A DNA stretch of 19,157 nucleotides from a virus. The notes below the pieces were generated by a model. It ran no database searches, was not told the origin of the DNA, and was given only the letters and a program-made list of their open reading frames with translations. The position numbers were made by a program, and so were the translations under genes. Shown piece after piece: positions 1 to 19,157 of this stretch (positions within the stretch are counted from its first letter, which is position 1; every line of letters starts with the position of its first letter). Location: IMG/VR virus record IMGVR_UViG_3300045988_018683; one strand, written 5' to 3'.

Positions 1-111
1 GTGGGAGGGGTGTGGGTTTGTGTGAAGATTTTCCCTTGTGGTTTTTTTTATTTGTGTATTATTTTTTTTTGTTCTGTGACTTCGTTGTCGTTTTGTTTTG
101 TTTATGTCTCT

Positions 112-140
112 ATTATATTTTTTTTACGCTTGCATGTCAA
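112..140 (-). promoter_or_regulatory. Outward-facing consensus sigma70-type promoter in the left ITR (TTGACA-17 nt-TATAAT)
   Basis: On the - strand, TTGACA lies at 140-135 and TATAAT at 117-112, with a 17-nt spacer. It points toward genome end 1. The mirror copy is on the + strand at 19018-19046. Confidence 0.6.
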
Positions 141-149
141 GTTTTTTTA

Positions 150-164
150 TTTTCGGGCGTGTCG
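150..164. repeat. 15-mer TTTTCGGGCGTGTCG, repeated at 330-344 (both copies inside the ITR)
   Basis: Exact 15-nt direct repeat, copies 180 bp apart. The second copy covers the -35 region of the inward ITR promoter. Confidence 0.8.
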
Positions 165-174
165 TTTTTTTTTA

Positions 175-252
175 TTGACGTTGTGTCAATGGTTGTATGT
201 GCAACAATCTATGTTGACGTTGTGTCAATGGTTGTATATGCAACAATGTGTG
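175..252. repeat. Two tandem 39-bp direct repeats inside the ITR (mirror copy 18906-18983)
   Basis: TTGACGTTGTGTCAATGGTTGTAT(G/A)TGCAACAAT occurs at 175-213 and 214-252. Each unit carries the small dyads TTGAC-N5-GTCAA and GTTG-N6-CAAC. Confidence 0.9.
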
Positions 253-261
253 TCCTGCTAG

Positions 262-283
262 GTTACGGTTACGTAACCGTAAC
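262..283. promoter_or_regulatory. Perfect 22-bp palindrome in the ITR, candidate operator (mirror copy 18875-18896)
   Basis: GTTACGGTTAC|GTAACCGTAAC is fully self-complementary. It is built from two GGTTAC units followed by two GTAAC(C) units. Confidence 0.85.
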
Positions 284-356
284 TTACTGCTCGTCCTGTG
301 GTTGTTTTTTATTGTTTTGCTGTGTTTTGTTTTCGGGCGTGTCGCCGTTTTGTTTG

Positions 357-365
357 TGTTATAGT
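357..365 (+). promoter_or_regulatory. Inward-facing extended -10 promoter in the left ITR (TGTTATAGT); mirror copy on the - strand at 18793-18801
   Basis: A TGn plus TATAGT element lies about 30 nt upstream of the SD AAGGAAAGGA and the ATG at the inner ITR edge. Confidence 0.5.
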
Positions 366-396
366 GTAGTTATCAAGTTCAAGGAAAGGAAATAAA

Positions 397-483
397 ATGA
401 ACATACTAGGGGTTGATGTTTATAACGATAATGCAATACCGGTTGATTTGGTTGTCGTTAAACGTGCTGAAAGAGGAGAATAA
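397..483 (+). CDS. Hypothetical 28-aa early micro-protein (MNILGVDVYNDNAIPVDLVVVKRAERGE)
   Basis: Its ATG is the last part of the ITR and is preceded by the ITR-encoded SD AAGGAAAGGA. Amino-acid composition is balanced. It is too short for the ORF track. Confidence 0.25.
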   Translation: MNILGVDVYNDNAIPVDLVVVKRAERGE

Positions 484-485
484 AT

Positions 486-554
486 ATGTTTGCTTCTGTC
501 CTTATTATTTGCGCGTGTGTTGTTGGTGTTGTTGTCGTTTTTGGTATGATATAG
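486..554 (+). CDS. Hypothetical 22-aa hydrophobic peptide (MFASVLIICACVVGVVVVFGMI)
   Basis: A strong SD AGAGGAG lies 7 nt upstream of ATG 486. The product is a single hydrophobic stretch. Confidence 0.25.
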   Translation: MFASVLIICACVVGVVVVFGMI

Positions 555-556
555 GG

Positions 557-754
557 GTGGTTGTTTTGGTGGTCTTTCGGTTTATTGGGTGCGCGATTTT
601 GTTTTTCGCGCTTGTGGTGGGTGTTTCTCTTGCTGTTGTCGGCTTGAGTGATTCCGTGCATAATGATTTTCGTGATGTAATGTCTTTTATTGCCATCACG
701 GTGACATTGTGTTTGGTTGCCGTCGCCCTATTGGTTTTCCTTTATAATATATGA
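557..754 (+). CDS. Hypothetical small membrane protein (two hydrophobic segments); start uncertain
   Basis: This is the C-terminal part of track ORF 413-754. GTG 557 is my guess for the start. The upstream part translates to Cys/Trp/Phe-rich text typical of T-rich DNA. Confidence 0.3.
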   Translation: MVVLVVFRFIGCAILFFALVVGVSLAVVGLSDSVHNDFRDVMSFIAITVTLCLVAVALLVFLYNI

Positions 755-772
755 TTGGGAAGGATGGTTGAA

Positions 773-1018
773 ATGTGTATGAATGATATGAATGTCGCTG
801 TGTTTACGTCACCTTTTATGGGTGGTGGTGTGCGCTTGTGGTATTGTCCTCATGGACATCGGTACGAACTTAGGTATGCTGTCCGTGTTCGCACTTCGAC
901 TGGTTTTTGCGATGCTAAGGCATTGTGCGCATATGACGCGTGCGACCTTTCTCAGGTGGCCGATTTGATGTTGGACGCTATTGACATTGCCCGTACGCCG
1001 CTCTTGGATAGGGAGTAG
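773..1018 (+). CDS. Hypothetical early protein (81 aa)
   Basis: ORF 755-1018. ATG 773 lies 8 nt after GGAAGGA. No family recognised. Confidence 0.5.
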   Translation: MCMNDMNVAVFTSPFMGGGVRLWYCPHGHRYELRYAVRVRTSTGFCDAKALCAYDACDLSQVADLMLDAIDIARTPLLDRE

Positions 1019-2296: not shown

Positions 2297-2731
2297 ATGG
2301 AAAACAACAATAACGCACTCGTCGCATTCAACACCGAAAACACCGAACTCGGCACCGTCCAGCACTTCATTGACACTTCGACGCGCGAAGGCAAAATCAA
2401 GCTCTACAGCGCATTGCAGAACGCCGAAAAGCTCGACGAACACCTTAACGAGCCGTTGAACATGACGAACGCCGTAGCCCAGTCCGTGCAGGTGACCGAC
2501 GAACAGACTGGCGAAATCTCCAACACCGTGCGCGTTATTATCGTAACCGATGACAACAAGGCGTATGCGGCCACCTCCCCGACTCTTGCCGCAGGACTTA
2601 ATACCATGTTCGGTATCTTCGGCACGCCGAACACTTGGACGGAACCGTTGTGCATCAAGGTGGTGGAACGCCGTTCCCGCCGCGGGTTCAAGTTTTTCAG
2701 TATCGAGCCGGTGGACGAGGAAGCCAAGTGA
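2297..2731 (+). CDS. Single-stranded DNA-binding protein, phi29 p5-like
   Basis: SD GGAAAGG. EGKIKLYSA, the central TGE...V..I..DD...Y.A.S pattern and the C-terminal IKVVERRSRRGFKFFSI parallel phi29 p5 (EGQIKIFNA ... VKVVQGTSSKGNVFFSL). It sits upstream of the TP and polymerase genes. Confidence 0.65.
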   Translation: MENNNNALVAFNTENTELGTVQHFIDTSTREGKIKLYSALQNAEKLDEHLNEPLNMTNAVAQSVQVTDEQTGEISNTVRVIIVTDDNKAYAATSPTLAAGLNTMFGIFGTPNTWTEPLCIKVVERRSRRGFKFFSIEPVDEEAK

Positions 2732-2762: not shown

Positions 2763-2788
2763 GAGAGCACCCCTTGTTGGGTGCTCTC
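2763..2788 (+). terminator. 10-bp perfect hairpin between the SSB and TP genes (weak terminator or attenuator)
   Basis: GAGAGCACCC-cttgtt-GGGTGCTCTC followed by TCTATCT, which is only a weak U-tract. Confidence 0.35.
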
Positions 2789-2810
2789 TCTATCTGAAAG
2801 GACTGCAACC

Positions 2811-3893
2811 ATGTCACGGAAGAGGGAGAAACCAGCCCCCCGCGCAGTCGTATCACAGAACTATCGCACCCACCAAAAACCGGATATCAGCAACGTCGCC
2901 ATCAAAGCCGATAAGCAGCAGCGCAAGCAGTATCAGCAGCAGCGCAAGCACCTCAAGAAGATTCAGGCCGCGCAGGCACGCGCCGCACGCGACATCAAGC
3001 AACTCGGCGCCTACTCCCACTCAAATCTCGCCAAAACCGCGGACAAACAACTAGTCAACATCGCCAAAACCTTGGGCAAGGAGTGGGAGAAGCAGAAGAA
3101 ACAAGCCATAGCGGAAGCGAAAGCAACACCATATCACGACACCGCCGTGGAAAAGCCGACGAAAAAAGACTACATATTTGCCCAGCGCACGCCCATCACC
3201 GACGAGCAAATCGACTCGGAACCCGTGGCAAAACGCCGCAAACTCCTGCGTCAACAGCAGAGGAAAATCAATGCGGCGCGACGTAAAATCAACGAATGGA
3301 ACAAGTCTCAAGCCATGCCCGCGAAAAGCGTGTATGAGCAGCGTGTGGCCGAAATCACCGGAACCACAGGCGAGGGTTTCGGACGCAATCAGATAATCCC
3401 ATCAAAACTCACGGACTTTCTGCAAATGACCAACGTCCTATCAGACGAAGCGTTTGTGCGCAGCCAATTGGAGAGCGGACACCGTAACGAACTGCTTGAG
3501 CAGATGCACGATGCCGCAAAAATCCTCGGACTTAGGACGGAACAAAAACGTAAACCGTCCAAAAAGCGGAGAACCGGCAAACAGAGCAAAGACTTGTATA
3601 ATGAACATGATTGGCCATCGTACATGTCGCGTGGACGCTATGAGGTTTTCGAGAAAATCTTGGCCACCACGCTCGGCTCGAAACGGTTGAAACGGTTCCG
3701 CCAACTTTCAGACGCGCAAAAACGCGCGTTTATCGAACAGACGGACGCACCTCGAATCGTATTCGACTGGACGGTATATGACCCAGTACGGCACGGTTTT
3801 ACTTCGGTGTTCAGAGATAACAGCAAGGGCTATCAGCGTTCGCGACGGCAGTTTGACCGGTGGTTGGCCGAAGCGGCCGCGTTGGGAAAGTAG
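2811..3893 (+). CDS. Putative terminal protein (primer for protein-primed replication), 360 aa
   Basis: ATG 2811 follows AAAGGA. The protein is very basic (K/R/Q rich) and lies immediately upstream of the protein-primed polymerase, as phi29 gene 3 does. The genome has ITRs. No direct motif was recognised. Confidence 0.6.
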   Translation: MSRKREKPAPRAVVSQNYRTHQKPDISNVAIKADKQQRKQYQQQRKHLKKIQAAQARAARDIKQLGAYSHSNLAKTADKQLVNIAKTLGKEWEKQKKQAIAEAKATPYHDTAVEKPTKKDYIFAQRTPITDEQIDSEPVAKRRKLLRQQQRKINAARRKINEWNKSQAMPAKSVYEQRVAEITGTTGEGFGRNQIIPSKLTDFLQMTNVLSDEAFVRSQLESGHRNELLEQMHDAAKILGLRTEQKRKPSKKRRTGKQSKDLYNEHDWPSYMSRGRYEVFEKILATTLGSKRLKRFRQLSDAQKRAFIEQTDAPRIVFDWTVYDPVRHGFTSVFRDNSKGYQRSRRQFDRWLAEAAALGK

Positions 3894-3920
3894 CTGACGG
3901 CAAACAAGGGAAGTTGTACC

Positions 3921-5372
3921 ATGACCATGCAAGACAAACGAGTGGGATTATGGTGCGCGGATAACGCCATACGCTTTACGGACGGCACCGTCATGCGTGA
4001 CATTACCGCGCCCAATCGTCTGCTGGCGTCTATCATGTCGGGCGGCAAACTCACCGTCTACGTGACTAACCCCGACATACTAGACCCATTCATTGCGCAT
4101 GTCGTACATTTCCTCCCGCACGACGAACATAATGCTAACCTGAGCTGGGACTCCATTACCTCGAAAAAGGGAAAATTTTTCAGCTTCACGGTACGTATCG
4201 ACCGTGAAAATTACGTCCGTTTTTTCGACATATCGAATCTTTTACGCGAGAATTGCCGTCTGACCATGACCGACACCCAGCTACTCAGTATCTTGCGTGA
4301 GTACGATAATCGCGGATTGTGCAAAATCACCGCGGGCGGTGCGAGTATGGAGGCTTTCGCCGCTGGCGAGTGGAAATGGTATTACGACAAATTCCCACAA
4401 CTCGGAACCGAAACCAAGAAGTCATTACATGACGCCTATATCGGCGGCTTCATGCTCGCCAAGGAAGGGACTTATGGCAAGGCTATCGACGTTGACTGTA
4501 ATAGCATGTATCCAAGTATTTTGCGGGACGAGTGGCTGCCGTGGGGCGAACCGGAACCATATGAAGGCAAGTACGAGGAAGATACCGATATGCCGTTGCA
4601 TTGCGATGAAATCACGTTTCGTGCGGAACTCAAGCCGGACGGATACCCTTTTCTATTGGACAATCGTAGTATCTACGGGCTGAATCGACTTACTTCGACC
4701 CGTGGCTACATCACGCGCGTATTGACGGATATCGACCAACGATTGCTTTACGAAAACTATGACGTGAGCGTCTACAAGCATGTTAGGGGGTGGAAATTCC
4801 GCCGCTCCAAGGGGTTTTTTCGCTCGTTCGTTGACGAATGGGGAGAATTGAAACAGCGGACGACGGGCGAAAAACGGCAGATGGCGAAACTCATTATGAA
4901 CGCTCTTGTAGGCAAGATGGCGAGTCTGCCAAAAGGTGCCGTCATGCTCCCACTATCCAAAGACGGCATAACCTTGGATTGGGGTGTCGCCCAGCGTGAG
5001 GAGTCGAACCTGAAAACCGACTACTTACCAGTTCCCGTTTGGGTCAACGCCCACGCACGCCGCAGGCTTATGTACGTGTGCCATGCCAACTCTGACCGGC
5101 TCTTGTATGCGAACACGGACGGTTGTATTTTGAGCGGTTGGGGTCCTGCGAAATCATGTGACATCCACCCGACCGAACTTGGCAAATGGAAAATAGCCGC
5201 CCAATACGAAAAACTGACCATCCTTGGAATGAACCGTTATCAAGGGTGGCGGGATGACGGGGAAGTTGACGTCTGCATGGCCGGAAACATGTTATCGCAC
5301 CCTATCCCCTATGACCAATTCCAGCATGGGACGCAGGTCGTGGACGATTACGGGACAATTGTCATGTTATAA
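3921..5372 (+). CDS. Protein-primed family-B DNA polymerase (phi29 gp2-like), compact at 483 aa
   Basis: Recognisable motifs are GLCKITAGGASMEAF, AYIGGF (YxGG), motif A DVDCNSMYPS, LPWGEPEPYEGKY, motif B KLIMNALVGK, motif C YANTDG and KLGKWK. All are collinear with phi29 DNA polymerase. Confidence 0.9.
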   Translation: MTMQDKRVGLWCADNAIRFTDGTVMRDITAPNRLLASIMSGGKLTVYVTNPDILDPFIAHVVHFLPHDEHNANLSWDSITSKKGKFFSFTVRIDRENYVRFFDISNLLRENCRLTMTDTQLLSILREYDNRGLCKITAGGASMEAFAAGEWKWYYDKFPQLGTETKKSLHDAYIGGFMLAKEGTYGKAIDVDCNSMYPSILRDEWLPWGEPEPYEGKYEEDTDMPLHCDEITFRAELKPDGYPFLLDNRSIYGLNRLTSTRGYITRVLTDIDQRLLYENYDVSVYKHVRGWKFRRSKGFFRSFVDEWGELKQRTTGEKRQMAKLIMNALVGKMASLPKGAVMLPLSKDGITLDWGVAQREESNLKTDYLPVPVWVNAHARRRLMYVCHANSDRLLYANTDGCILSGWGPAKSCDIHPTELGKWKIAAQYEKLTILGMNRYQGWRDDGEVDVCMAGNMLSHPIPYDQFQHGTQVVDDYGTIVML

Positions 5373-5373
5373 T
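5365..5373 (+). promoter_or_regulatory. Extended -10 promoter TGTTATAAT overlapping the polymerase stop codon
   Basis: Perfect TGnTATAAT. The polymerase TAA stop is at 5370-5372. Confidence 0.45.
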
Positions 5374-5379
5374 GTCTAG

Positions 5380-5550
5380 TGTCTTCACGAGCGTCGATTT
5401 TCGGCTGGGGAACAACACGGGTCGGACTGCCACGGCTGAAAACGCCGCCGACCGTGAACATCACTATCGTGGCGGTAGTGCCCTACGATTTTCACTTCGC
5501 GCTCACATAGGACAGTTAGACCCCGCGCGATTGCGGGGTCATTTATTTTC
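5380..5550 (+). ncRNA. Candidate structured non-coding RNA of about 165-170 nt (possible pRNA-like RNA, or the early-operon 3' UTR)
   Basis: Bounded by the promoter at 5365-5373 and the intrinsic terminator at 5519-5550. There is no ATG between 5375 and 5557 and no SD. Hand-found helices lie at 5416-5456 (with a 7-nt bulge) and 5466-5489. Confidence 0.35.
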
Positions 5551-5552
5551 TC
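5519..5552 (+). terminator. Rho-independent terminator ending the early region
   Basis: GACCCCGC-gcgatt-GCGGGGTC followed by ATTTATTTTCT. Confidence 0.8.
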
Positions 5553-5558
5553 GCCGCA

Positions 5559-5567
5559 TGATATAAT
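5559..5567 (+). promoter_or_regulatory. Extended -10 promoter TGATATAAT, candidate late promoter
   Basis: Perfect TGnTATAAT directly after the terminator and about 37 nt upstream of the scaffold gene. Confidence 0.55.
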
Positions 5568-5603
5568 TTTGATGGAAACACTACCAACGTAAGGAGAATT
5601 TGC

Positions 5604-5885
5604 ATGGCAGACCCAGACAATGAAGGCGAGGCCACCACCACCCCACCGCCGACCGAAGAGGAACAGCAGACCCAAACCGTGGATGATGAAGTCAAGCCGA
5701 AAGAGGAACAGGAGCCGGAACCGAAACAGGAGCCGGACGTTTCCGCACGCCTTGACGCACTCGAAAAGGAATTGGCCGCGCTGAAAGCCATGCTGGACAC
5801 GCTCGGCTATAATGACCCCGCCCCGTCCGACAATGACGGCGACAACGACGAGACTCAAGAGTCCATCGAAGATTTGTTCGACTAA
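5604..5885 (+). CDS. Putative scaffolding protein (93 aa, very acidic, coiled-coil segment)
   Basis: SD AAGGAG. It lies immediately upstream of the capsid gene, as phi29 gp7 does, and is of similar size. It is D/E/P/T rich, with the helical stretch LDALEKELAALKAMLDTL. Confidence 0.5.
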   Translation: MADPDNEGEATTTPPPTEEEQQTQTVDDEVKPKEEQEPEPKQEPDVSARLDALEKELAALKAMLDTLGYNDPAPSDNDGDNDETQESIEDLFD

Positions 5886-5906
5886 AAGAGTTAGGAGATA
5901 TATATA

Positions 5907-7622
5907 ATGTCTAATGTCCGACCGTTGGCCGGCAAAGGTGACGTTGAGATTTTCAATGCCATCCGCTCCGCCACCTCACCCCAGTTCCAGACCCGTATCC
6001 CGAGCGTCACGCAGGGCAATATCCGCAACGCGGTAGACACCATGCGTAATTTCCCCTATCTGCGTGACGAGTTCACTGGCGTGCTTATCCAGCGCCTGAT
6101 TGGGCTTTATATCCAACACGCTGACTGGGACGACCCGCTGAAGCTCATTGGCTCCCCACGCACCCTCAAGCGTTACGGTAGCACGTATGAGCAGGCCGCA
6201 GTCGGTCTCGTCAAGGCACGTACCCGCAACTTCAACAAAGAGTATCTCGGTGACGACGTGTACGGCCGCTACAGTCTGCCGACCGCAAGCGTGTTCCATC
6301 CGCTGACCTTTGACCACTACTATCCGGTCACCATCCCAGAAGACGCTCTGCTGACCGCTTTTGATGGCGAAAGCGGCATGTCGGATTACATTGCGGAAAT
6401 CATGAACGCGCCTATCCTCTCGGATAGAAACGACATGTACTTGATGAAGACCCAGTGTTTCGCGGAATACGCGCGTAAGGGCGGCTTCTACCGCGTGCAT
6501 ACGCCAGACGTTGGCAAGGCCGACTCTACCGAAGCGGATGCCAAGGGCCTGCTACGCTTGATTCAGCAGGTGGCGAACGAATTGAAGGCGTCCCCCATGT
6601 CGGCTATGCCGCGCTATAACGCCATGAGTTGGGTGACCCCGTGGCGCGACAGTGAAGCGATTCTCTTTGCTACCCCGCAGGTTATCGCCGCATTGAACGT
6701 CGAAGCCCTCGCCGCAGCGTTCAACATCGATAAGGTGAACGTTCCGTACAGGATTATCCCAATTCCTGAAGATATGTTCGGTATCGGCGGCACCGCTGGC
6801 AAGGGGCAAGCCGTTCTCACCACCGAAGACTTCTTCTTCTGCTGGGACGAAATGCTGGAAACCACCAATAGCCCCGTCAATCCGATTGACGGCACCCGCA
6901 ACATCTTCTACAAGCACCGTGGCAGCATTACCCCGAACCCGTTTGCGAACGCTGTACTGTTCTGGACGGGCGAAGGCTCCAATGAGACGGTGACTCTGCC
7001 GGACACGCTCACCACCTCGAAGCCCGAATTTACCTTGCGTGTGCGCAAGTATGGTCAGACTGCCGTCACTCCGCAAAACGTGTCCCGTGGCGACTTGGTG
7101 CAAGTGGTGTCCACCATTTCCAGCGCCAACAAGGATAAGGCGACATTCCAGCCGGTCGGCGTCAAGTACGCTGTCGAAGGCGCAACCAGTCAGTTTACGA
7201 CCATCGATAACGACGGCATTTTGCGTTGCGGTTTGGATGAAACCGCCGAAACGCTCAAGGTCACCGCACAGGCCACCTATATTAATCCGGCCACTCCGGA
7301 AATCGACCAAACCGTATCCGCCGCGCTCGATGTGCCGGTGGTGGGCGCTTGGCTTGGCGGTTGGAAGGCAGGAGCCATCGAGTCTCTTGAGATTCGGGGC
7401 GAAAAGTCAGTCAAAGTGAACGGCCATGTCGCGCTTAAGGCGATTGCCACCAAGACGGACGGCAACACCGCGGACGTGACCAACCTAACCGTGTGGACGG
7501 TGGACGCTAACGCAACCATCACCCCTAACGGCGTGCTGACCGGTAAAACGCAGGGCGCCGCAAATGTCTCCGTGAAGTTCGCGGGGGCCGCAGGAACGGC
7601 AAAGGTAACCGTCACCGCGTGA
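5907..7622 (+). CDS. Major capsid protein (phi29 gp8-like) with C-terminal Ig-like (Big_2-type) domain(s)
   Basis: SD AGGAG. The N-terminal IFNAIRS and central ALNVEALAAAFNIDK parallel phi29 gp8 (IVNAIRN ... LDVDVLAKAFNMNR). The C-terminus VALKAIATKTDGNTADVTNLTVWTV...GAANVSVKFAG..GTAKVTV looks like Big_2. Confidence 0.8.
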   Translation: MSNVRPLAGKGDVEIFNAIRSATSPQFQTRIPSVTQGNIRNAVDTMRNFPYLRDEFTGVLIQRLIGLYIQHADWDDPLKLIGSPRTLKRYGSTYEQAAVGLVKARTRNFNKEYLGDDVYGRYSLPTASVFHPLTFDHYYPVTIPEDALLTAFDGESGMSDYIAEIMNAPILSDRNDMYLMKTQCFAEYARKGGFYRVHTPDVGKADSTEADAKGLLRLIQQVANELKASPMSAMPRYNAMSWVTPWRDSEAILFATPQVIAALNVEALAAAFNIDKVNVPYRIIPIPEDMFGIGGTAGKGQAVLTTEDFFFCWDEMLETTNSPVNPIDGTRNIFYKHRGSITPNPFANAVLFWTGEGSNETVTLPDTLTTSKPEFTLRVRKYGQTAVTPQNVSRGDLVQVVSTISSANKDKATFQPVGVKYAVEGATSQFTTIDNDGILRCGLDETAETLKVTAQATYINPATPEIDQTVSAALDVPVVGAWLGGWKAGAIESLEIRGEKSVKVNGHVALKAIATKTDGNTADVTNLTVWTVDANATITPNGVLTGKTQGAANVSVKFAGAAGTAKVTVTA

Positions 7623-12933: not shown

Positions 12934-14826
12934 ATGGCAACCGTGTATACGAAAACCGACAATTACGGACTGAACCTTTACGGGGACAACGACCCCGCCG
13001 ACTTGAGGGACGGCTATAACGGCAGCATGCGGACCATTGACGCCACTTTGGAACAGCATCTTAACCGCATCGAGGGCGTGGAAGCGCGAGAAACACATGA
13101 TGAAGCGGTTATGAAGGCGCTGCTTGTGGATAACACGGTGGATAAGGCAACCGCAGCGAAAACCAAGTGGGACAAGTCAAGTGCGGACGCCGCCGCCGCC
13201 GCAAGCAAGGCCGACGCAAACACGACAATTCTCAACGCACTCGGCGCTGGGTCTACCGTCAATGCCGCCGCCCAGAAAACCAAGTGGGATAATGCGGTTG
13301 CCACCGCCAACGGCAACACTCAGGCGCTGGCCGCGCTCGGGAGCAATACCACCGCCACCGCCGCCGCAAATAAGACCAAGTGGGATAACGCCGCCACAAG
13401 AGTCGCGGAACTTGCTACCGCGCGTGTGGACAGCAAGCTATCCTCACATTTCATCATTCATGCGCACCGTGGCTCGTACCGTTTCCCCGAAAACACTATG
13501 GAGGGAATCATGTGGGCGGTACGTCACGGGTACGTGCCGGAAATCGACGTACAGCTCACGTCGGACGGCGTGCCAGTTATCCTGCACGACACGTCTACCG
13601 CCCGAACCATGACGGGAACCGCCGCCAACGTGTCCTCCATCACCTACAAGGACTTCATGAGCCGCGAAGTCAAAGCGAAAGTGCATGGTGGCAATACCGG
13701 CAGACCGGTGAGCATGGAGCAGGTACTACAGGCTGTGGGCGATAGTCCGGTTGATTTTGAAATCAAATCGTTGAACAACGCCACCACCGACGCAATGCTG
13801 GAATTGTTGCGAAAGTATAATGCCACCGCAATCCACGAATTGACTTCGTTCAGTTGGGAGCAGTGCGTACGCGCGGTGCAAGGCGGAGTGAAATACGTGT
13901 CATGGACGTGGGATGTGGATGCTATGCCGCATTCTTGGATTGACATGAAAAATGCGGGCATTTTCTGCGGCAATCCGCGGGAAGACAAACTCACCTCATC
14001 AATGGTCAACGCCGCGCATTCGGCTGGAGTCAAGATTAATCCGTGGCTTATCAATGACCCCGTAGCCTACGAGCGTGTTACCGCGCTCGATGTAGACGGT
14101 ATCACCTCCAATTGGCCGGATTACGCTAGCGGACAATTGGAACGAAACTTCACCCCGTTCAGTTCAGGCCAGAACGTTTTCATGCGCCCGAACTACGCTC
14201 CCGCAGGTAACCAGGTATCACAGGAAATACCGGACAATGTTAGAGCGAAAAGTTCGTATCTTGCACCGGACGGGCTTTTTCAGTTGGGTGATGCAGATTC
14301 TCAGATGCTAGTGGAAATGGTTGAATGTGGCACGGTATCCCTACCGGTCACTATCGACCTTGAAGGCTTCGAGTCCAAAATACAGATTGGAGACGCAGGG
14401 GAAACGAAGAACATTGCGGTAATCGCAGCGAAAGAGTCAACCCCTATCAGCCAGTTTAACGACAAGGCGACGGCTGGACAGGTCGGTATCATTGCAGGCG
14501 TTCGACGTAATGGTGATACTTTCGGTGGCTTCTATCGGGACAACGAAGAAACGGTGGCATTCGACAGTACCCCCCCAGTGTCTCCATCCGTACCAAATGA
14601 CAAAGCGGTGGGAGTCCATGCAAGTTTCGTGCTCGACCGTGACCATGCTCGAATCGTCTGGGCATATTCCAATGGGCAGTCGGGCGATGTGACTACCGGC
14701 AACAATAAGGGCGTCACGTTGCCCGACACTGACAAGTACCGTCTGTTCGTCCGTCTTGCACGCAATTTTAAGAGTGTGTGGAAAATTAGGGTGCGCCCAG
14801 CGGACGGACTCTTATACGAGAGCTGA
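12934..14826 (+). CDS. Tail fibre / appendage protein with a glycerophosphodiester phosphodiesterase (GDPD) domain, 630 aa
   Basis: Four parts: the N-terminal shared motif NYGLNLYGDNDPADLRDGYNGSMRTID; three KTKWD repeats; the GDPD signature IIHAHRGSYRFPENTMEGIMWAVRHGYVPEIDVQLTSDGVPVILHDTSTARTM; and about 220 aa of unassigned C-terminus. Confidence 0.75.
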   Translation: MATVYTKTDNYGLNLYGDNDPADLRDGYNGSMRTIDATLEQHLNRIEGVEARETHDEAVMKALLVDNTVDKATAAKTKWDKSSADAAAAASKADANTTILNALGAGSTVNAAAQKTKWDNAVATANGNTQALAALGSNTTATAAANKTKWDNAATRVAELATARVDSKLSSHFIIHAHRGSYRFPENTMEGIMWAVRHGYVPEIDVQLTSDGVPVILHDTSTARTMTGTAANVSSITYKDFMSREVKAKVHGGNTGRPVSMEQVLQAVGDSPVDFEIKSLNNATTDAMLELLRKYNATAIHELTSFSWEQCVRAVQGGVKYVSWTWDVDAMPHSWIDMKNAGIFCGNPREDKLTSSMVNAAHSAGVKINPWLINDPVAYERVTALDVDGITSNWPDYASGQLERNFTPFSSGQNVFMRPNYAPAGNQVSQEIPDNVRAKSSYLAPDGLFQLGDADSQMLVEMVECGTVSLPVTIDLEGFESKIQIGDAGETKNIAVIAAKESTPISQFNDKATAGQVGIIAGVRRNGDTFGGFYRDNEETVAFDSTPPVSPSVPNDKAVGVHASFVLDRDHARIVWAYSNGQSGDVTTGNNKGVTLPDTDKYRLFVRLARNFKSVWKIRVRPADGLLYES

Positions 14827-14843: not shown

Positions 14844-14888
14844 TAATAGCCATACCACTATAATGGTGGCATGGCTATTACTTTTAAT
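14844..14888 (+). terminator. Hairpin (15-bp stem, one mismatch) plus CTTTTAAT, overlapping the next gene's start codon
   Basis: TAATAGCCATACCAC-tataatg-GTGGCATGGCTATTA. The ATG at 14871 lies in the 3' arm. Confidence 0.45.
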
Positions 14889-16094
14889 GATTGGATTAAG
14901 CAGACCCAAGGCCGATACTGGGACATGGACGGCGCTTACGGCGCACAATGCTGGGACTTGTGGGCTAAATACTGCATGGATTTATACGGTGCGTCCGTAA
15001 GCGACTGCATCACGCCAACCGGATACGCGGAAGGAAACTACACAAGGTTTCCCACGAACGCGAAAATGGCGCAGATTTTCGAGAAGAAGCCCGCCGACTA
15101 CAGTCCCGTAAAAGGTGATGTGGCGTTTTGGAATTTCTCAAGCCAACACACAGGCTCACACGTATCCATTGTCATAGAAGACGGCGTGCATAACGGGCGC
15201 ATCACCGTGTTATCGCAAAACCCTAACCCCGCGCAGCGCATGACATTCGACCTGACCGCCTTTTTAGGCTATCTGCATCCGAAAGCACTGGGTGAGGGGG
15301 GTGGAACGACGTCCACGGAAAATAATCCGACAGGCGACAATAGCAGCGGGTCAGCTGATTCTGCGCGTGGTGGCGCGTGGATACATTGGCAGGGCGACAA
15401 CCTCTACTTACACGAGAGCGATAATGCCGGGACGCGAACCCGTATTTTCTACCGTACGACGGCCAACAATTTTTCTGAAAAAGCGTCACAATCCCAACCG
15501 CCCAGCGACAACGGACAGGCGCATCCATCCGTCTCGTTGTCGGCCGAAAACTCGTACGCCCTCTATGTTGTCGGCACCGTCGAAGCGGGTTTGCGCTGGG
15601 ATGCAGTCGAAGCCGCGAACCTCCAAGGCATCGGAATTGCGCAATGGAGTTTCGAGCGACGCCTGCAAGTACTCAACGCCATGAAAGCCGCCGACCCAAC
15701 CGGATATGCGGCATTCAAAACCGCCGCGCCTGAAATAGCCGCGCTCATGGAGTCAGGCGGTGCGTTCAAACGTTCGCTCACCTCGTCGGAAGCGGCCGCG
15801 TTCCGCACATGGGCCGGACGCAGCGAGTCACGCGACGGACAGCGCAAGCAGTTCGCAGAAGACTACGCAGGCTACCCCAAACAGTATACTGACACTAAAA
15901 TGCAAATACTTTGGGTTACGGCGTATCACCAGTCGCCCGCTAACGCGCTCAAGGTGCCGAAAGCGCCGAATCTCGCACAACTTAAAAACAATATTCTGAA
16001 CACATATCCGTTCGGCCCGTACACGACACGATACAATCAGGCATATTCATTATTGAGTGTGTGGGACGGCAAGTCAAACCCGCCATCATTCTAA
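14871..16094 (+). CDS. Virion-associated peptidoglycan hydrolase (tail lysin): N-terminal CHAP domain plus a tentative C-terminal lysozyme-like domain
   Basis: CHAP signature DGAYGAQCWDL ... GDVAFW ... GSHVSIV. The central linker is Gly/Ser/Thr rich. The C-terminal GTVEAG...GIGIAQWSFERR resembles phage tail lysozyme domains. The position corresponds to phi29 gp13. Confidence 0.7.
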   Translation: MAITFNDWIKQTQGRYWDMDGAYGAQCWDLWAKYCMDLYGASVSDCITPTGYAEGNYTRFPTNAKMAQIFEKKPADYSPVKGDVAFWNFSSQHTGSHVSIVIEDGVHNGRITVLSQNPNPAQRMTFDLTAFLGYLHPKALGEGGGTTSTENNPTGDNSSGSADSARGGAWIHWQGDNLYLHESDNAGTRTRIFYRTTANNFSEKASQSQPPSDNGQAHPSVSLSAENSYALYVVGTVEAGLRWDAVEAANLQGIGIAQWSFERRLQVLNAMKAADPTGYAAFKTAAPEIAALMESGGAFKRSLTSSEAAAFRTWAGRSESRDGQRKQFAEDYAGYPKQYTDTKMQILWVTAYHQSPANALKVPKAPNLAQLKNNILNTYPFGPYTTRYNQAYSLLSVWDGKSNPPSF

Positions 16095-17309: not shown

Positions 17310-17675
17310 ATGACCACAGCGGACGTATGGTGCGCTATCGCAGTGATGTTCTTCATCGCCACCGATTACGTTACCGGCATGGCGAAAGCCATCATGCAGG
17401 ACAATTTAAGCTCCGAAAAAATGCGGGAGGGGTTAGGTCACAAGTTCGCCTATATAATCCTCACGTTGACAGCATGGTTTATCGATGAAGTTAACCTACA
17501 CGTCGACTTAGGGTTACCGGTTTCTGTATTCGTCTGCACTGTCGGCGGAATTTGTTTAATTGAACTCACGTCGATTTTGGAAAACATCACCGAAATCAAC
17601 CCTGAACTAGCGGACGCGCCATTCATGCAGATTTTCGCCAAGAACGACACTCAATCGAAACACGGCAGAAAATGA
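17310..17675 (+). CDS. Holin (phage_holin_4_1 / LL-H-type family)
   Basis: SD GGAAGGA. Three hydrophobic segments. The motifs DYVTGMAKA, SSEKMREGLGHK and LIELTSILENI are typical of this holin family. It lies upstream of the endolysin gene. Confidence 0.75.
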   Translation: MTTADVWCAIAVMFFIATDYVTGMAKAIMQDNLSSEKMREGLGHKFAYIILTLTAWFIDEVNLHVDLGLPVSVFVCTVGGICLIELTSILENITEINPELADAPFMQIFAKNDTQSKHGRK

Positions 17676-17858: not shown

Positions 17859-18509
17859 ATGAACATCCAAGAATGGATTAACACAGTCAACGGCAAAACC
17901 ATCGACGTAGACAGGGCATACGGCGGCCAATGCTGGGACCTATGGTCGCACTACGCCCAGCACGTGTACGGTATTCCACAAGCCGACACGAACACGGTAG
18001 ACGGATACGCGGCAAGCGTGTACACGGCACGGTACGGACGTAGCCGCGCACTGCAAAACACGTTCGAGCGAAAACCTGCCAACTATACGCCCGTCTACGG
18101 TGACGTGGCATTCTGGAAATGCAGCAGAATGAACCACGTCGCCATCGTAGTACGAGACAACGGCAACGGCACGCTACAAACCATCAGCCAAAACCCCAAC
18201 CGTGCCGGATACGTCAACATCGGCAAAAAAGGCATCATCGGCTACTTTCATCCACGCAACAGCAGCAACAATACCACCACCACCACCACACGCGCCTATC
18301 GCGTCAACGTCGACGTGCTCAACGTACGCTCGGCACCAAGCATCCACAGTCAAGTCGTGGCGCAATACCGCAAAGGACAAACGGTCAACCTCATGAGCGG
18401 AACCACCATTGCGGACGGTTATGTTTGGGGCCACTACGTAGGCGGGTCGGGAAAGACACGCTATGTCGCGCTAAAAGCCGTGAACGGTACGAACAAATAC
18501 CTCGTATGA
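17859..18509 (+). CDS. Endolysin: CHAP domain plus C-terminal SH3b-type cell-wall binding domain
   Basis: SD AGGGA. CHAP signature DRAYGGQCWDL ... GDVAFW ... NHVAIVV, a T-rich linker, then YRVNVDVLNVRSAPS...VVAQYRKGQTV...GYVWGHY...RYVA, which is SH3-like. Confidence 0.85.
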   Translation: MNIQEWINTVNGKTIDVDRAYGGQCWDLWSHYAQHVYGIPQADTNTVDGYAASVYTARYGRSRALQNTFERKPANYTPVYGDVAFWKCSRMNHVAIVVRDNGNGTLQTISQNPNRAGYVNIGKKGIIGYFHPRNSSNNTTTTTTRAYRVNVDVLNVRSAPSIHSQVVAQYRKGQTVNLMSGTTIADGYVWGHYVGGSGKTRYVALKAVNGTNKYLV

Positions 18510-18759: not shown

Positions 18760-19157
18760 TTTATTTTTCCTTTCCTTGAACTTGATAACTACACTATAAC
18801 ACAAACAAAACGGCGACACGCCCGAAAACAAAACACAGCAAAACAATAAAAAACAACCACAGGACGAGCAGTAAGTTACGGTTACGTAACCGTAACCTAG
18901 CAGGACACACATTGTTGCATATACAACCATTGACACAACGTCAACATAGATTGTTGCACATACAACCATTGACACAACGTCAATAAAAAAAAACGACACG
19001 CCCGAAAATAAAAAAACTTGACATGCAAGCGTAAAAAAAATATAATAGAGACATAAACAAAACAAAACGACAACGAAGTCACAGAACAAAAAAAAATAAT
19101 ACACAAATAAAAAAAACCACAAGGGAAAATCTTCACACAAACCCACACCCCTCCCAC
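18756..19157. repeat. Right inverted terminal repeat (ITR)
   Basis: Reverse complement of 1-400 with two extra A residues next to the inner end (GGAAAAATAAAATGA versus GGAAATAAAATGA). Confidence 0.95.
19018..19046 (+). promoter_or_regulatory. Outward-facing consensus sigma70-type promoter in the right ITR
   Basis: TTGACA at 19018-19023, a 17-nt spacer, TATAAT at 19041-19046. It points toward the right genome end, about 105 nt away. Confidence 0.6.

Follow-up and report, generated by a model that had tools for sequence, protein, structure and literature searches.

Loss of exonuclease motifs in a short protein-primed DNA polymerase of a phi29-like podophage

The polymerase gene and its identity

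The viral DNA stretch IMGVR_UViG_3300045988_018683 from IMG/VR has 19,157 nt, and the whole of it was analysed here as the window. Inverted terminal repeats (ITRs) of 397 nt reach both ends, so the window is the complete linear genome of a phi29-like Bifidobacterium podophage. An open reading frame (ORF) at 3921-5372 on the plus strand, with ATG at 3921 and a stop codon ending at 5372, encodes a protein of 483 amino acids (aa), a DNA polymerase of family B that is protein-primed (pPolB). Its N-terminal domain descends from the phi29-type exonuclease and has lost nearly all of the exonuclease residues, and three motifs of the polymerase domain are changed too. Judged from sequence and predicted structure, the enzyme is probably a working replicase that cannot proofread and keeps the old exonuclease domain as a scaffold. 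The features of the gene are listed below, with residues of phi29 polymerase given for comparison.

3906..3913, plus strand: Shine-Dalgarno sequence AAGGGAAG, 7 nt 5' of the polymerase ATG
3921..5372, plus strand: protein-primed DNA polymerase of family B, from PF03175, the match to phi29 polymerase in the PDB and AlphaFold2 (AF2)/Foldseek
3921..4310, plus strand: N-terminal pseudo-exonuclease domain (aa 1-130), from hhalign and a domain-only AF2 model
3936..3968, plus strand: Exo I remnant, aa 6-16 KRVGLWCADNA, with no D-x-E
4059..4091, plus strand: Exo II remnant, aa 47-57 YVTNPDILDPF, with Ile53 at the Asp66 position
4260..4274, plus strand: Exo III remnant, aa 114-118 LTMTD, with Leu114 for Tyr165 and Asp118 for Asp169
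4494..4514, plus strand: motif A DCNSMYP, intact, with catalytic D192 and the steric-gate tyrosine Y197
4887..4913, plus strand: motif B KLIMNALVG, with Val330 for Tyr390 and Ala328 for Ser388
5106..5123, plus strand: motif C YANTDG, with Asn398 for D456, Asp400 kept and Gly401 for Ser
5232..5240, plus strand: KxY motif as NRY, with Asn438 for Lys498 and the basic residue shifted to Arg439

The PF03175 profile matched the protein with 96 bits (cut-off 25.8, E 3.1e-27), only in aa 136-388 and profile positions 176-437, and phrog_1907 matched with E 5.5e-42. HMMER against the PDB aligned only aa 117-438, with residues 168-498 of phi29 polymerase (E 6.7e-42). These sequence methods recognise the polymerase half alone. 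The AF2 model of the full-length protein had pLDDT 92 (about 89-95 in the N-domain) and pTM 0.90. Foldseek gave it a query-normalised TM-score of 0.82-0.84 to phi29 polymerase (1xhx/2pyj), against at most 0.43 to RNA/DNA-primed family-B polymerases (PolBs). A full-length score of 0.82-0.84 is too high for a misfitting N-domain, so the N-domain also fits phi29 polymerase. TPR1 and TPR2 are present, as HMMER aligned the protein without gaps through phi29 residues 261-358 and 398-420, and the model has a beta-hairpin at 340-358. Its profile match, fold, TPR insertions and catalytic Asp residues place the protein in the pPolB family.

The motif AAGGGAAG and its spacing are identical before the homologous polymerase start in Bifidobacterium phages BP1 and BD811P2. 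Public annotations of these two polymerases begin at later codons (471 aa in BP1, 445 aa in BD811P2). The conserved Shine-Dalgarno motif together with the conserved N-terminal peptide favours the 483-aa start over the shorter annotations. The same two signals indicate 483 aa at 4813-6264 in BP1 and at 3273-4724 in BD811P2, the latter with a GTG start.

An exhaustive search of 1.8 billion representative proteins found 1577 relatives. The nearest were short (454-496 aa), followed by ordinary ones of 540-620 aa. Public assemblies contain at least 120 clusters of full-length 483-aa proteins which are 76-90% identical. Three sets are used for the counts below: the close family of 121 sequences (at least 76% identical), 18 representatives of the short clade, and 105 canonical relatives including phi29.

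Exonuclease and polymerase motifs and their distribution

The N-terminal 150 aa of the short set matched the exonuclease profile of the 105 canonical relatives in hhalign with 98.5% probability (E 3e-14). The N-domain was also modelled by itself, with short-clade sequences alone as AF2 input so that canonical exonucleases would not bias the model (pLDDT 87). The only significant PDB matches of this model were nine phi29 polymerase chains (E 1e-4 to 1.6e-3; TM-score 0.61-0.64 over about 187 alignment columns, 8-9% identity), and the next match had E 0.27. It means that the N-domain is homologous to the phi29 exonuclease domain with its core fold kept, a shrunken exonuclease fold and not a new one. 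Intact relatives scored 159-244 bits with the hidden Markov model (HMM) of the canonical exonuclease domain, whereas the window protein reached only 8.8 bits and the other short proteins -2 to 23 bits. The polymerase-domain HMM gave 258 bits on the window protein.

In phi29 polymerase the exonuclease site consists of Asp12 and Glu14 (Exo I), Asp66 (Exo II), and Asp169 and Tyr165 (Exo III), with Lys143 of the Kx2hxA motif as auxiliary residue, and D12A/D66A is the standard exonuclease-minus mutant (PMC4974454). The first-pass annotation, which was made from the letters of the sequence, had reported that Exo I has no D-x-E, and this is true in every register, none of which puts acidic residues at both Exo I positions. 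Within aa 1-30, D5, D14, D21 and D27 alone are acidic, and no two of them stand at i/i+2. MAFFT places A13 and N15 at the positions of D12 and E14, while the hhalign match begins after Exo I, which implies that strand beta1 is lost. Since neither register contains a D-x-E, the Exo I motif is absent whichever alignment holds. D14 is found in 119/121 of the close family, and its column is acidic in 11 of the 18 short-clade representatives.

Exo II had been taken as roughly kept, which did not stand. The Asp66 position is Ile53, and 116 of 121 close relatives have I, L or V there. The flanking D52 (D in 79, R in 16, E in 12 and G in 6) and D55 (D in 105, N in 8, T in 5, and also A) vary even within this family of at least 76% identity, and N50 is N in 69 and D in 48 of the 121. 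Exo III was read correctly as losing its Tyr and keeping its Asp: position 114 is L, I, V or M in the close family and D118 is kept in 120/121. Across the wider short clade, the column of this Asp is acidic in only 10/18.

The segment between Exo II and Exo III is shorter, as also noticed at first. A gap of 35 residues directly before Exo III removes the positions of Lys143 (Kx2h) and Tyr148. The Lys143 position is a gap in 17/18 short-clade members, while Lys143, like N62, is present in 105/105 canonical relatives. The protein is 92 aa shorter than phi29 polymerase, with an exonuclease domain of about 130 aa, and what remains of this shortening of about 90 aa comes from the extreme N-terminus, the beta2-beta3 hairpin and the C-terminal palm/thumb.

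Thus, of the DEDDy pattern (D-x-E, Nx2-3(F/Y)D, Yx3D) only D118, the equivalent of D169, is kept, and the Kx2hxA lysine of family-B exonucleases falls inside the deletion. Among the 18 short-clade representatives, acidic residues number at most 12 in any N-domain column, while the catalytic Asp residues of the polymerase domain are invariant. Profile alignment, the exonuclease HMM and the survey of homologues all failed to find a DEDDy constellation. Together with the predicted structure, they argue strongly for a catalytically dead exonuclease, which we consider probable, and so for the proofreading-deficient replicase that had been proposed at first.

The N-domain remnant is under purifying selection. 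Among the window, BP1 and BD811P2, the ratio of non-synonymous to synonymous rates (dN/dS) was about 0.1 for the N-domain and about 0.05-0.1 for the polymerase gene; these values are rough as synonymous changes (dS) are saturated among the three genomes. The proportion of non-synonymous differences (pN), which carries the main weight, was in aa 1-116 only 1.3-1.4 times that of the polymerase domain.

Two local features of the N-domain were also observed. Asn106 (4236-4238), in an N-L-x-R motif, is the sole N-domain residue that is invariant in 18/18 short-clade representatives. It takes the place of the phi29 loop with Lys124/Lys125, by which the linker between exonuclease and polymerase domains is contacted, and is a candidate for an inter-domain contact. 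A His-rich stretch at aa 60-70 (4098-4130; H60-x2-H63-x3-H67-x-E69-H70) lies at the end of the second N-domain helix. Conservation of H63, H67, E69 and H70 reaches at least 90% in the close family but does not extend to the wider short clade, and the stretch is a possible lineage-specific metal site.

In the polymerase domain, D192 of motif A and D400 of motif C align with D249 and D458 of phi29, and both are invariant in the close family (121/121) and in the short clade (18/18). Asp249 and Asp458 are the catalytic carboxylates of phi29 polymerase (PMC4974454). The motif C reading YANTDG was confirmed, as all 121 sequences of the close family have N398, T399, D400 and G401, while the D456 position is Asp in 105/105 canonical relatives. 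The loss of D456 is less alarming than it looks, because the equivalents of both catalytic Asp residues are kept and the primer-independent PolBs (piPolBs), which have Thr at this position, are proficient polymerases.

Two further losses, of the motif B Tyr and the KxY Lys, had been missed. Tyr390 of phi29 polymerase is described as the invariant tyrosine of motif B. Its equivalent is V in 118/121 of the close family and V, I, T or A in all 18 short-clade representatives, against Tyr in 93/105 canonical relatives. The Lys498 position is N in 121/121 of the close family, with Arg439 adjacent, is not Lys in any of the 18 short-clade representatives, and is Lys in 105/105 canonical relatives. In addition, phi29 Thr434 corresponds to Asn376. 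The protein therefore lacks the full pPolB motif set, with V330, N398 and N438 in place of Y390, D456 and K498. The first statement that the polymerisation fold was otherwise well conserved held for the fold and for TPR1/TPR2 (TM-score 0.82-0.84), but not for the motifs (Y390V, K498N, S388A, T434N).

A neighbour-joining tree of 362 polymerase-domain columns placed 20 short sequences in one clade with no canonical intruders. The short polymerases (454-496 aa) are monophyletic and nested among phi29-like phage polymerases. The features described here belong to this whole clade including its cultured members, and not to the window protein alone: loss of the exonuclease motifs, of the motif B Tyr and of the KxY Lys is a property of all of it. 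Inside the clade, the members with DTDS branch at the base, those with DTDG are nested among them and those with NTDG deeper still, and NTDG is a later step in the order DTDS, DTDG, NTDG.

Among cultured phages, only Bifidobacterium podophages carry a short polymerase: BP1, BD811P1-3 and the honeybee phages BadAztec/BadAargau (470 aa). BP1 was isolated and imaged as a podovirus (PMC12694917). Fully canonical polymerases occur in the other cultured actinobacterial or gut podophages tested, namely Actinomyces Av-1, Eggerthella LE1-1 and Hungatella CH17P1. The window polymerase is 84% identical to that of BP1 and 74-77% to those of the B. dentium phages BD811P1-3 (74-84% over this group), and about 31% identical to those of BadAztec/BadAargau2. 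All of these share the truncated N-domain. The BP1 and BD811P polymerases also have the NTDG motif, whereas that of BadAargau2 keeps DTDS, and in it even the first N-domain strands are missing. In their records all these polymerases go by "DNA polymerase" or "hypothetical protein" with no further detail, their start codons do not agree, and no comment on their exonuclease and motif losses was found in the literature searched. Full-text searches of an incomplete body of literature, a 2024 review of phi29-like phages and the BP1 papers included, also gave no account of exonuclease loss in such phages.

Outside the short clade, about 12 full-length (535-589 aa) representatives of phi29-like polymerases are also without parts of the DEDDy set (P0170, P0178, P0193, P0194, P0207, P0211, P0215, P0232, P0238, P0240, P0255 and P0262). 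Their exonuclease HMM scores are 12-109 bits, they stand at four or more separate places on the tree, and they have no close cultured relatives. Exonuclease decay may thus be recurrent in uncultured phi29-like phages.

Proposed function, fidelity and alternative explanations

The gene order of the window is small early ORFs, an SSB (single-stranded DNA-binding protein), a basic ORF of 370 aa, polymerase, Phi29_MCP capsid protein, tail knob, connector, lower collar, a tail protein with a glycerophosphodiester phosphodiesterase (GDPD) domain, CHAP lysins and holin, and a gp16-type packaging ATPase. Besides the polymerase gene, the features related with replication are as follows.

1..397: left ITR, 99% complementary to 18761-19157, presumed replication origin
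2297..2731, plus strand: phi29-type SSB (PF17427, E 1.4e-16; phrog_6243)
2781..3893, plus strand: basic protein of 370 aa, a putative terminal protein, encoded immediately upstream of the polymerase
18761..19157: right ITR

The ORF at 2781-3893 is rich in K, R and Q and is homologous to the ORF at the same position in BP1, BD811P1-3 and BadAargau2 (E 4e-18 for BadAargau2); its homologues were found in Bifidobacterium phages only. It matched no Pfam or PHROG family and showed no similarity to the terminal protein of Av-1. From its position, its product is presumably the terminal protein. No second polymerase gene was detected in the 19-kb genome, and no exonuclease or helicase elsewhere in it, when every sizeable ORF was scanned with Pfam and PHROGs. 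A six-frame scan with the canonical phi29-type exonuclease HMM matched no other ORF. About ten small early ORFs (12-2283 and 5372-5885) showed no detectable function in Pfam and PHROGs. Since no helicase is encoded, the enzyme must itself unwind DNA.

Polymerases of the phi29 type are textbook single-subunit replicases that combine protein priming, extreme processivity, strand displacement and proofreading. We propose that the window gene encodes the only replicase of the phage, which would be a protein-primed, strand-displacing family-B polymerase without 3'-5' proofreading. In the ancestor of the clade of Bifidobacterium-type podophages, the exonuclease domain would have shrunk from about 190 residues to about 120-130, with decay of its DEDDy/Kx2h catalytic residues. 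The remaining shell might have been kept because it still lines one side of the downstream-template tunnel, which TPR2, palm and fingers complete, and because it belongs to the surface on which the terminal protein docks. Polymerisation would rely on the two retained carboxylates, Asp192 and Asp400. The pocket of the nascent base pair and the contacts to the primer terminus appear to be remodelled in the same clade, by change of the motif B Tyr to Val or Ile and by loss or shift of the KxY Lys, and the sub-branch of the window would have added the drift of motif C to NTDG. Replication would start on the terminal protein, presumably the product of the ORF at 2781-3893, at the ITR ends. Elongation would then be processive and strand-displacing, along a tunnel of which the dead exonuclease shell still forms a part, and errors would not be edited.

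In phi29 polymerase, the exonuclease domain, TPR2, palm and fingers form the narrow downstream-template tunnel that underlies helicase-independent strand displacement, and residues of the exonuclease domain affect strand displacement and terminal-protein binding (PMC4974454, PMC6351526). This role of the tunnel, the purifying selection and the lack of any helicase or other exonuclease in the genome suggest that the shell was retained as a structural part of the replicase. That the enzyme works is indicated by the full-length clusters, at least 120 in number, by its carriage in the cultured, plaque-forming BP1 and BD811P1-3 and in the honeybee phages BadAztec/BadAargau, and by its conserved catalytic Asp residues.

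Wild-type phi29 polymerase discriminates 1e4-1e6-fold against wrong nucleotides (PMC4974454), while the Y390S mutant does so only about 3e2-fold (PMC1976434). On these values, one unedited 19-kb copy made with phi29-like insertion discrimination would contain roughly 0.02-2 errors. The motif B change could raise this number further if nothing compensates for it. We regard a marked lowering of fidelity as possible, with at best an even chance. More doubtful is the further idea that the whole clade replicates with a natural mutator replicase, lacking the proofreading site, the minor-groove-sensing Tyr of motif B and the KxY Lys, and still processive, helicase-independent and protein-primed. If it were true, a tailed double-stranded DNA (dsDNA) phage would have a mutation rate like that of RNA viruses, about 0.1 to more than 1 change per 19-kb genome copy, from a compact, naturally exonuclease-minus, strand-displacing polymerase of about 55 kDa.

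Several points weigh against a proofreading-dead replicase with a scaffold domain. The register of the first strand is ambiguous, as MAFFT and hhalign disagree. Carboxylates of the N-domain are highly conserved in the close family (D14 in 119/121, D103 and D118 each in 120/121, D77 in 121/121), so the sub-branch of the window may have a residual metal site. Exonuclease-site mutants of phi29 polymerase are impaired in strand displacement, so retained strand displacement is an assumption for the window enzyme. If Y390S (about 3e2) is a guide, the enzyme would be too error-prone for a 19-kb genome, and compensating features would be needed.

Four other explanations were considered, and two of them, both improbable, stand slightly better than the rest. 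Trans-acting proofreading subunits such as the epsilon subunit of Pol III exist in bacteria. Accordingly fidelity could be normal if a host 3'-5' exonuclease (DnaQ-like or other) or an unrecognised small phage protein proofreads in trans, and the early ORFs of no detectable function leave room for such a protein. However, no ORF matched the exonuclease HMM in six frames or any exonuclease family of Pfam or PHROGs, and no precedent was found in the literature searched. Moreover, phi29-type polymerases proofread intramolecularly and encircle the DNA (PMC4974454), which gives little access to a partner.

By the second explanation, the motif changes are an adaptation to a non-canonical nucleotide or to damaged DNA, which a proofreader would excise. 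The substitutions are coordinated, clade-wide and strongly conserved at three motifs that contact nucleotide or primer. Tyr390 governs the handling of 8-oxo-dG in phi29 polymerase (PMC1976434), and translesion synthesis is intrinsic to piPolBs, whose variation falls on the same two motifs, PolC and KxY (PMC5695915). Against this, Pfam and PHROGs detected no gene for nucleotide modification or biosynthesis in the genome, base composition outside the ITRs is unremarkable, and the idea is purely inferential. We consider it about as unlikely as proofreading in trans.

A little less probable still is that the shrunken N-domain works as an exonuclease with a reduced site, for example of D14, D52/D55 and D118, with H60/H63/H67/H70 replacing the Tyr as in DEDDh enzymes. 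Each of D14, D118 and D103 recurs in 119 or more of the 121 close relatives, H63, H67 and H70 reach at least 90% there, and some clade members keep a D-x-E/D-like string (WDGET in P0122). However, over the 18 clade representatives the candidate positions are not conserved and are acidic in at most 12; D52 changes to R or G and D55 to N, T or A within the close family; and the segment with K143, Y148 and Y165 is physically deleted. The canonical exonuclease HMM gives about 0-23 bits across the clade, and in phi29 polymerase single substitutions of canonical residues are enough to abolish the activity.

Finally, a decaying or mis-assembled polymerase gene or a mis-called start, with the phage using another polymerase, which the later starts of the public BP1 and BD811P2 annotations could suggest, is refuted by at least 120 independent clusters with an uninterrupted 483-aa ORF, the conserved Shine-Dalgarno sequence and N-terminal peptide, the dN/dS of about 0.05-0.1, invariant catalytic residues, a high-confidence AF2 model, the lack of any other polymerase gene in the 19-kb genome and the presence of the gene in cultured lytic phages.

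The probable proofreading-dead replicase was compared with known systems. The polymerase of Bacillus phage phi29 (gp2; 1XHX/2PYJ), the archetype of pPolBs, shares with it PF03175, palm, fingers, TPR1, TPR2, thumb, motif A and the second Asp of motif C, and both belong to linear podophage genomes of about 19 kb with phi29-type SSB, capsid, connector and packaging ATPase. The window enzyme differs in the absence of D12/E14, D66, K143, Y148 and Y165 and in having Val for Y390, Asn for K498 and Asn for D456, and the window genome has the ITR of 397 nt against 6 nt in phi29.

Mavirus pPolB retains just an exonuclease remnant and is predicted to have lower fidelity (PMC11161782). In mavirus and polinton-like viruses, the exonuclease is lost where a helicase (S3H or S1H) is gained, and the two events have been proposed to compensate each other (PMC11161782). 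Unlike the window enzyme, the mavirus-type pPolB and pPolB-S1H belong to elements of eukaryotic viruses, with TP-vOTU fusions and a gained helicase.

Pol alpha, Pol zeta and archaeal PolB2 keep an inactivated exonuclease domain as a structural module, and archaeal PolB2 also has a single Asp in motif C (PMC7544198). These are RNA/DNA-primed cellular enzymes with accessory factors, are not the sole replicase of a genome, and are related to the window enzyme only at the level of the PolB superfamily.

In piPolB the first Asp of motif C is Thr and KxY is varied, and it is still an efficient polymerase (PMC5695915, PMC7544198). Unlike the window enzyme, it keeps an active exonuclease (D59A/E61A was needed to kill it; PMC5695915) and initiates independently of primers. 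The window protein falls outside the piPolB clade, since the short clade nests among phi29-like phage polymerases. As its nearest relatives are phage pPolBs, the resemblance to piPolB is convergent.

Proofreading loss alone therefore has precedents, and what is noteworthy is the combination in the sole replicase of cultured phages: no helicase, a constrained pseudo-exonuclease shell, and loss of the motif B Tyr, the KxY Lys and the first Asp of motif C. The clade can be seen as a natural experiment on which parts of an exonuclease domain are needed for structure and which for catalysis, on how much fidelity a 19-kb dsDNA virus needs, and on how a family-B active site works without these three residues. 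These phages infect Bifidobacterium and occur in human gut metagenomes in abundance and great diversity, so that a raised mutation rate would matter for phage-host arms races there. Engineered exonuclease-minus phi29 polymerases are workhorses of sequencing, and a compact natural exonuclease-minus enzyme that keeps strand displacement would be of practical interest. If the enzyme does proofread, it would contain a new minimal exonuclease site.

Terminal repeats and tail and lysis genes

Two tandem repeats of 39 nt are present in the ITR at 175-252 (mirrored at 18905-18983), each opening with TTGACG, which resembles a -35 hexamer. The pair may be early promoters in duplicate or sites bound by an origin protein. 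The ITR also contains a repeated TTTTCGGGCGTGTCG element at about 149-163 and 329-343, and a near-perfect palindrome, GGTTACGGTTACGTAACCGTAAC, at about 262-285. The composition of window positions 1-1000 is strongly skewed, with GC 0.41 versus about 0.52 in the rest, GC skew +0.33, AT skew -0.44 and T- and G-rich tracts on the plus strand.

The GDPD domain occurs in a tail-region protein of 630 aa at 12934-14826, and its presence suggests degradation of teichoic acid at the host surface. In BP1, the equivalent position is taken by a beta-helix protein like pectate lyase. A peptidoglycan hydrolase of 407 aa with a CHAP domain and a weak lysozyme-like region is encoded in the tail module at 14871-16094, and a CHAP-SH3 endolysin of 216 aa at 17859-18509 adjoins the holin at 17310-17675.

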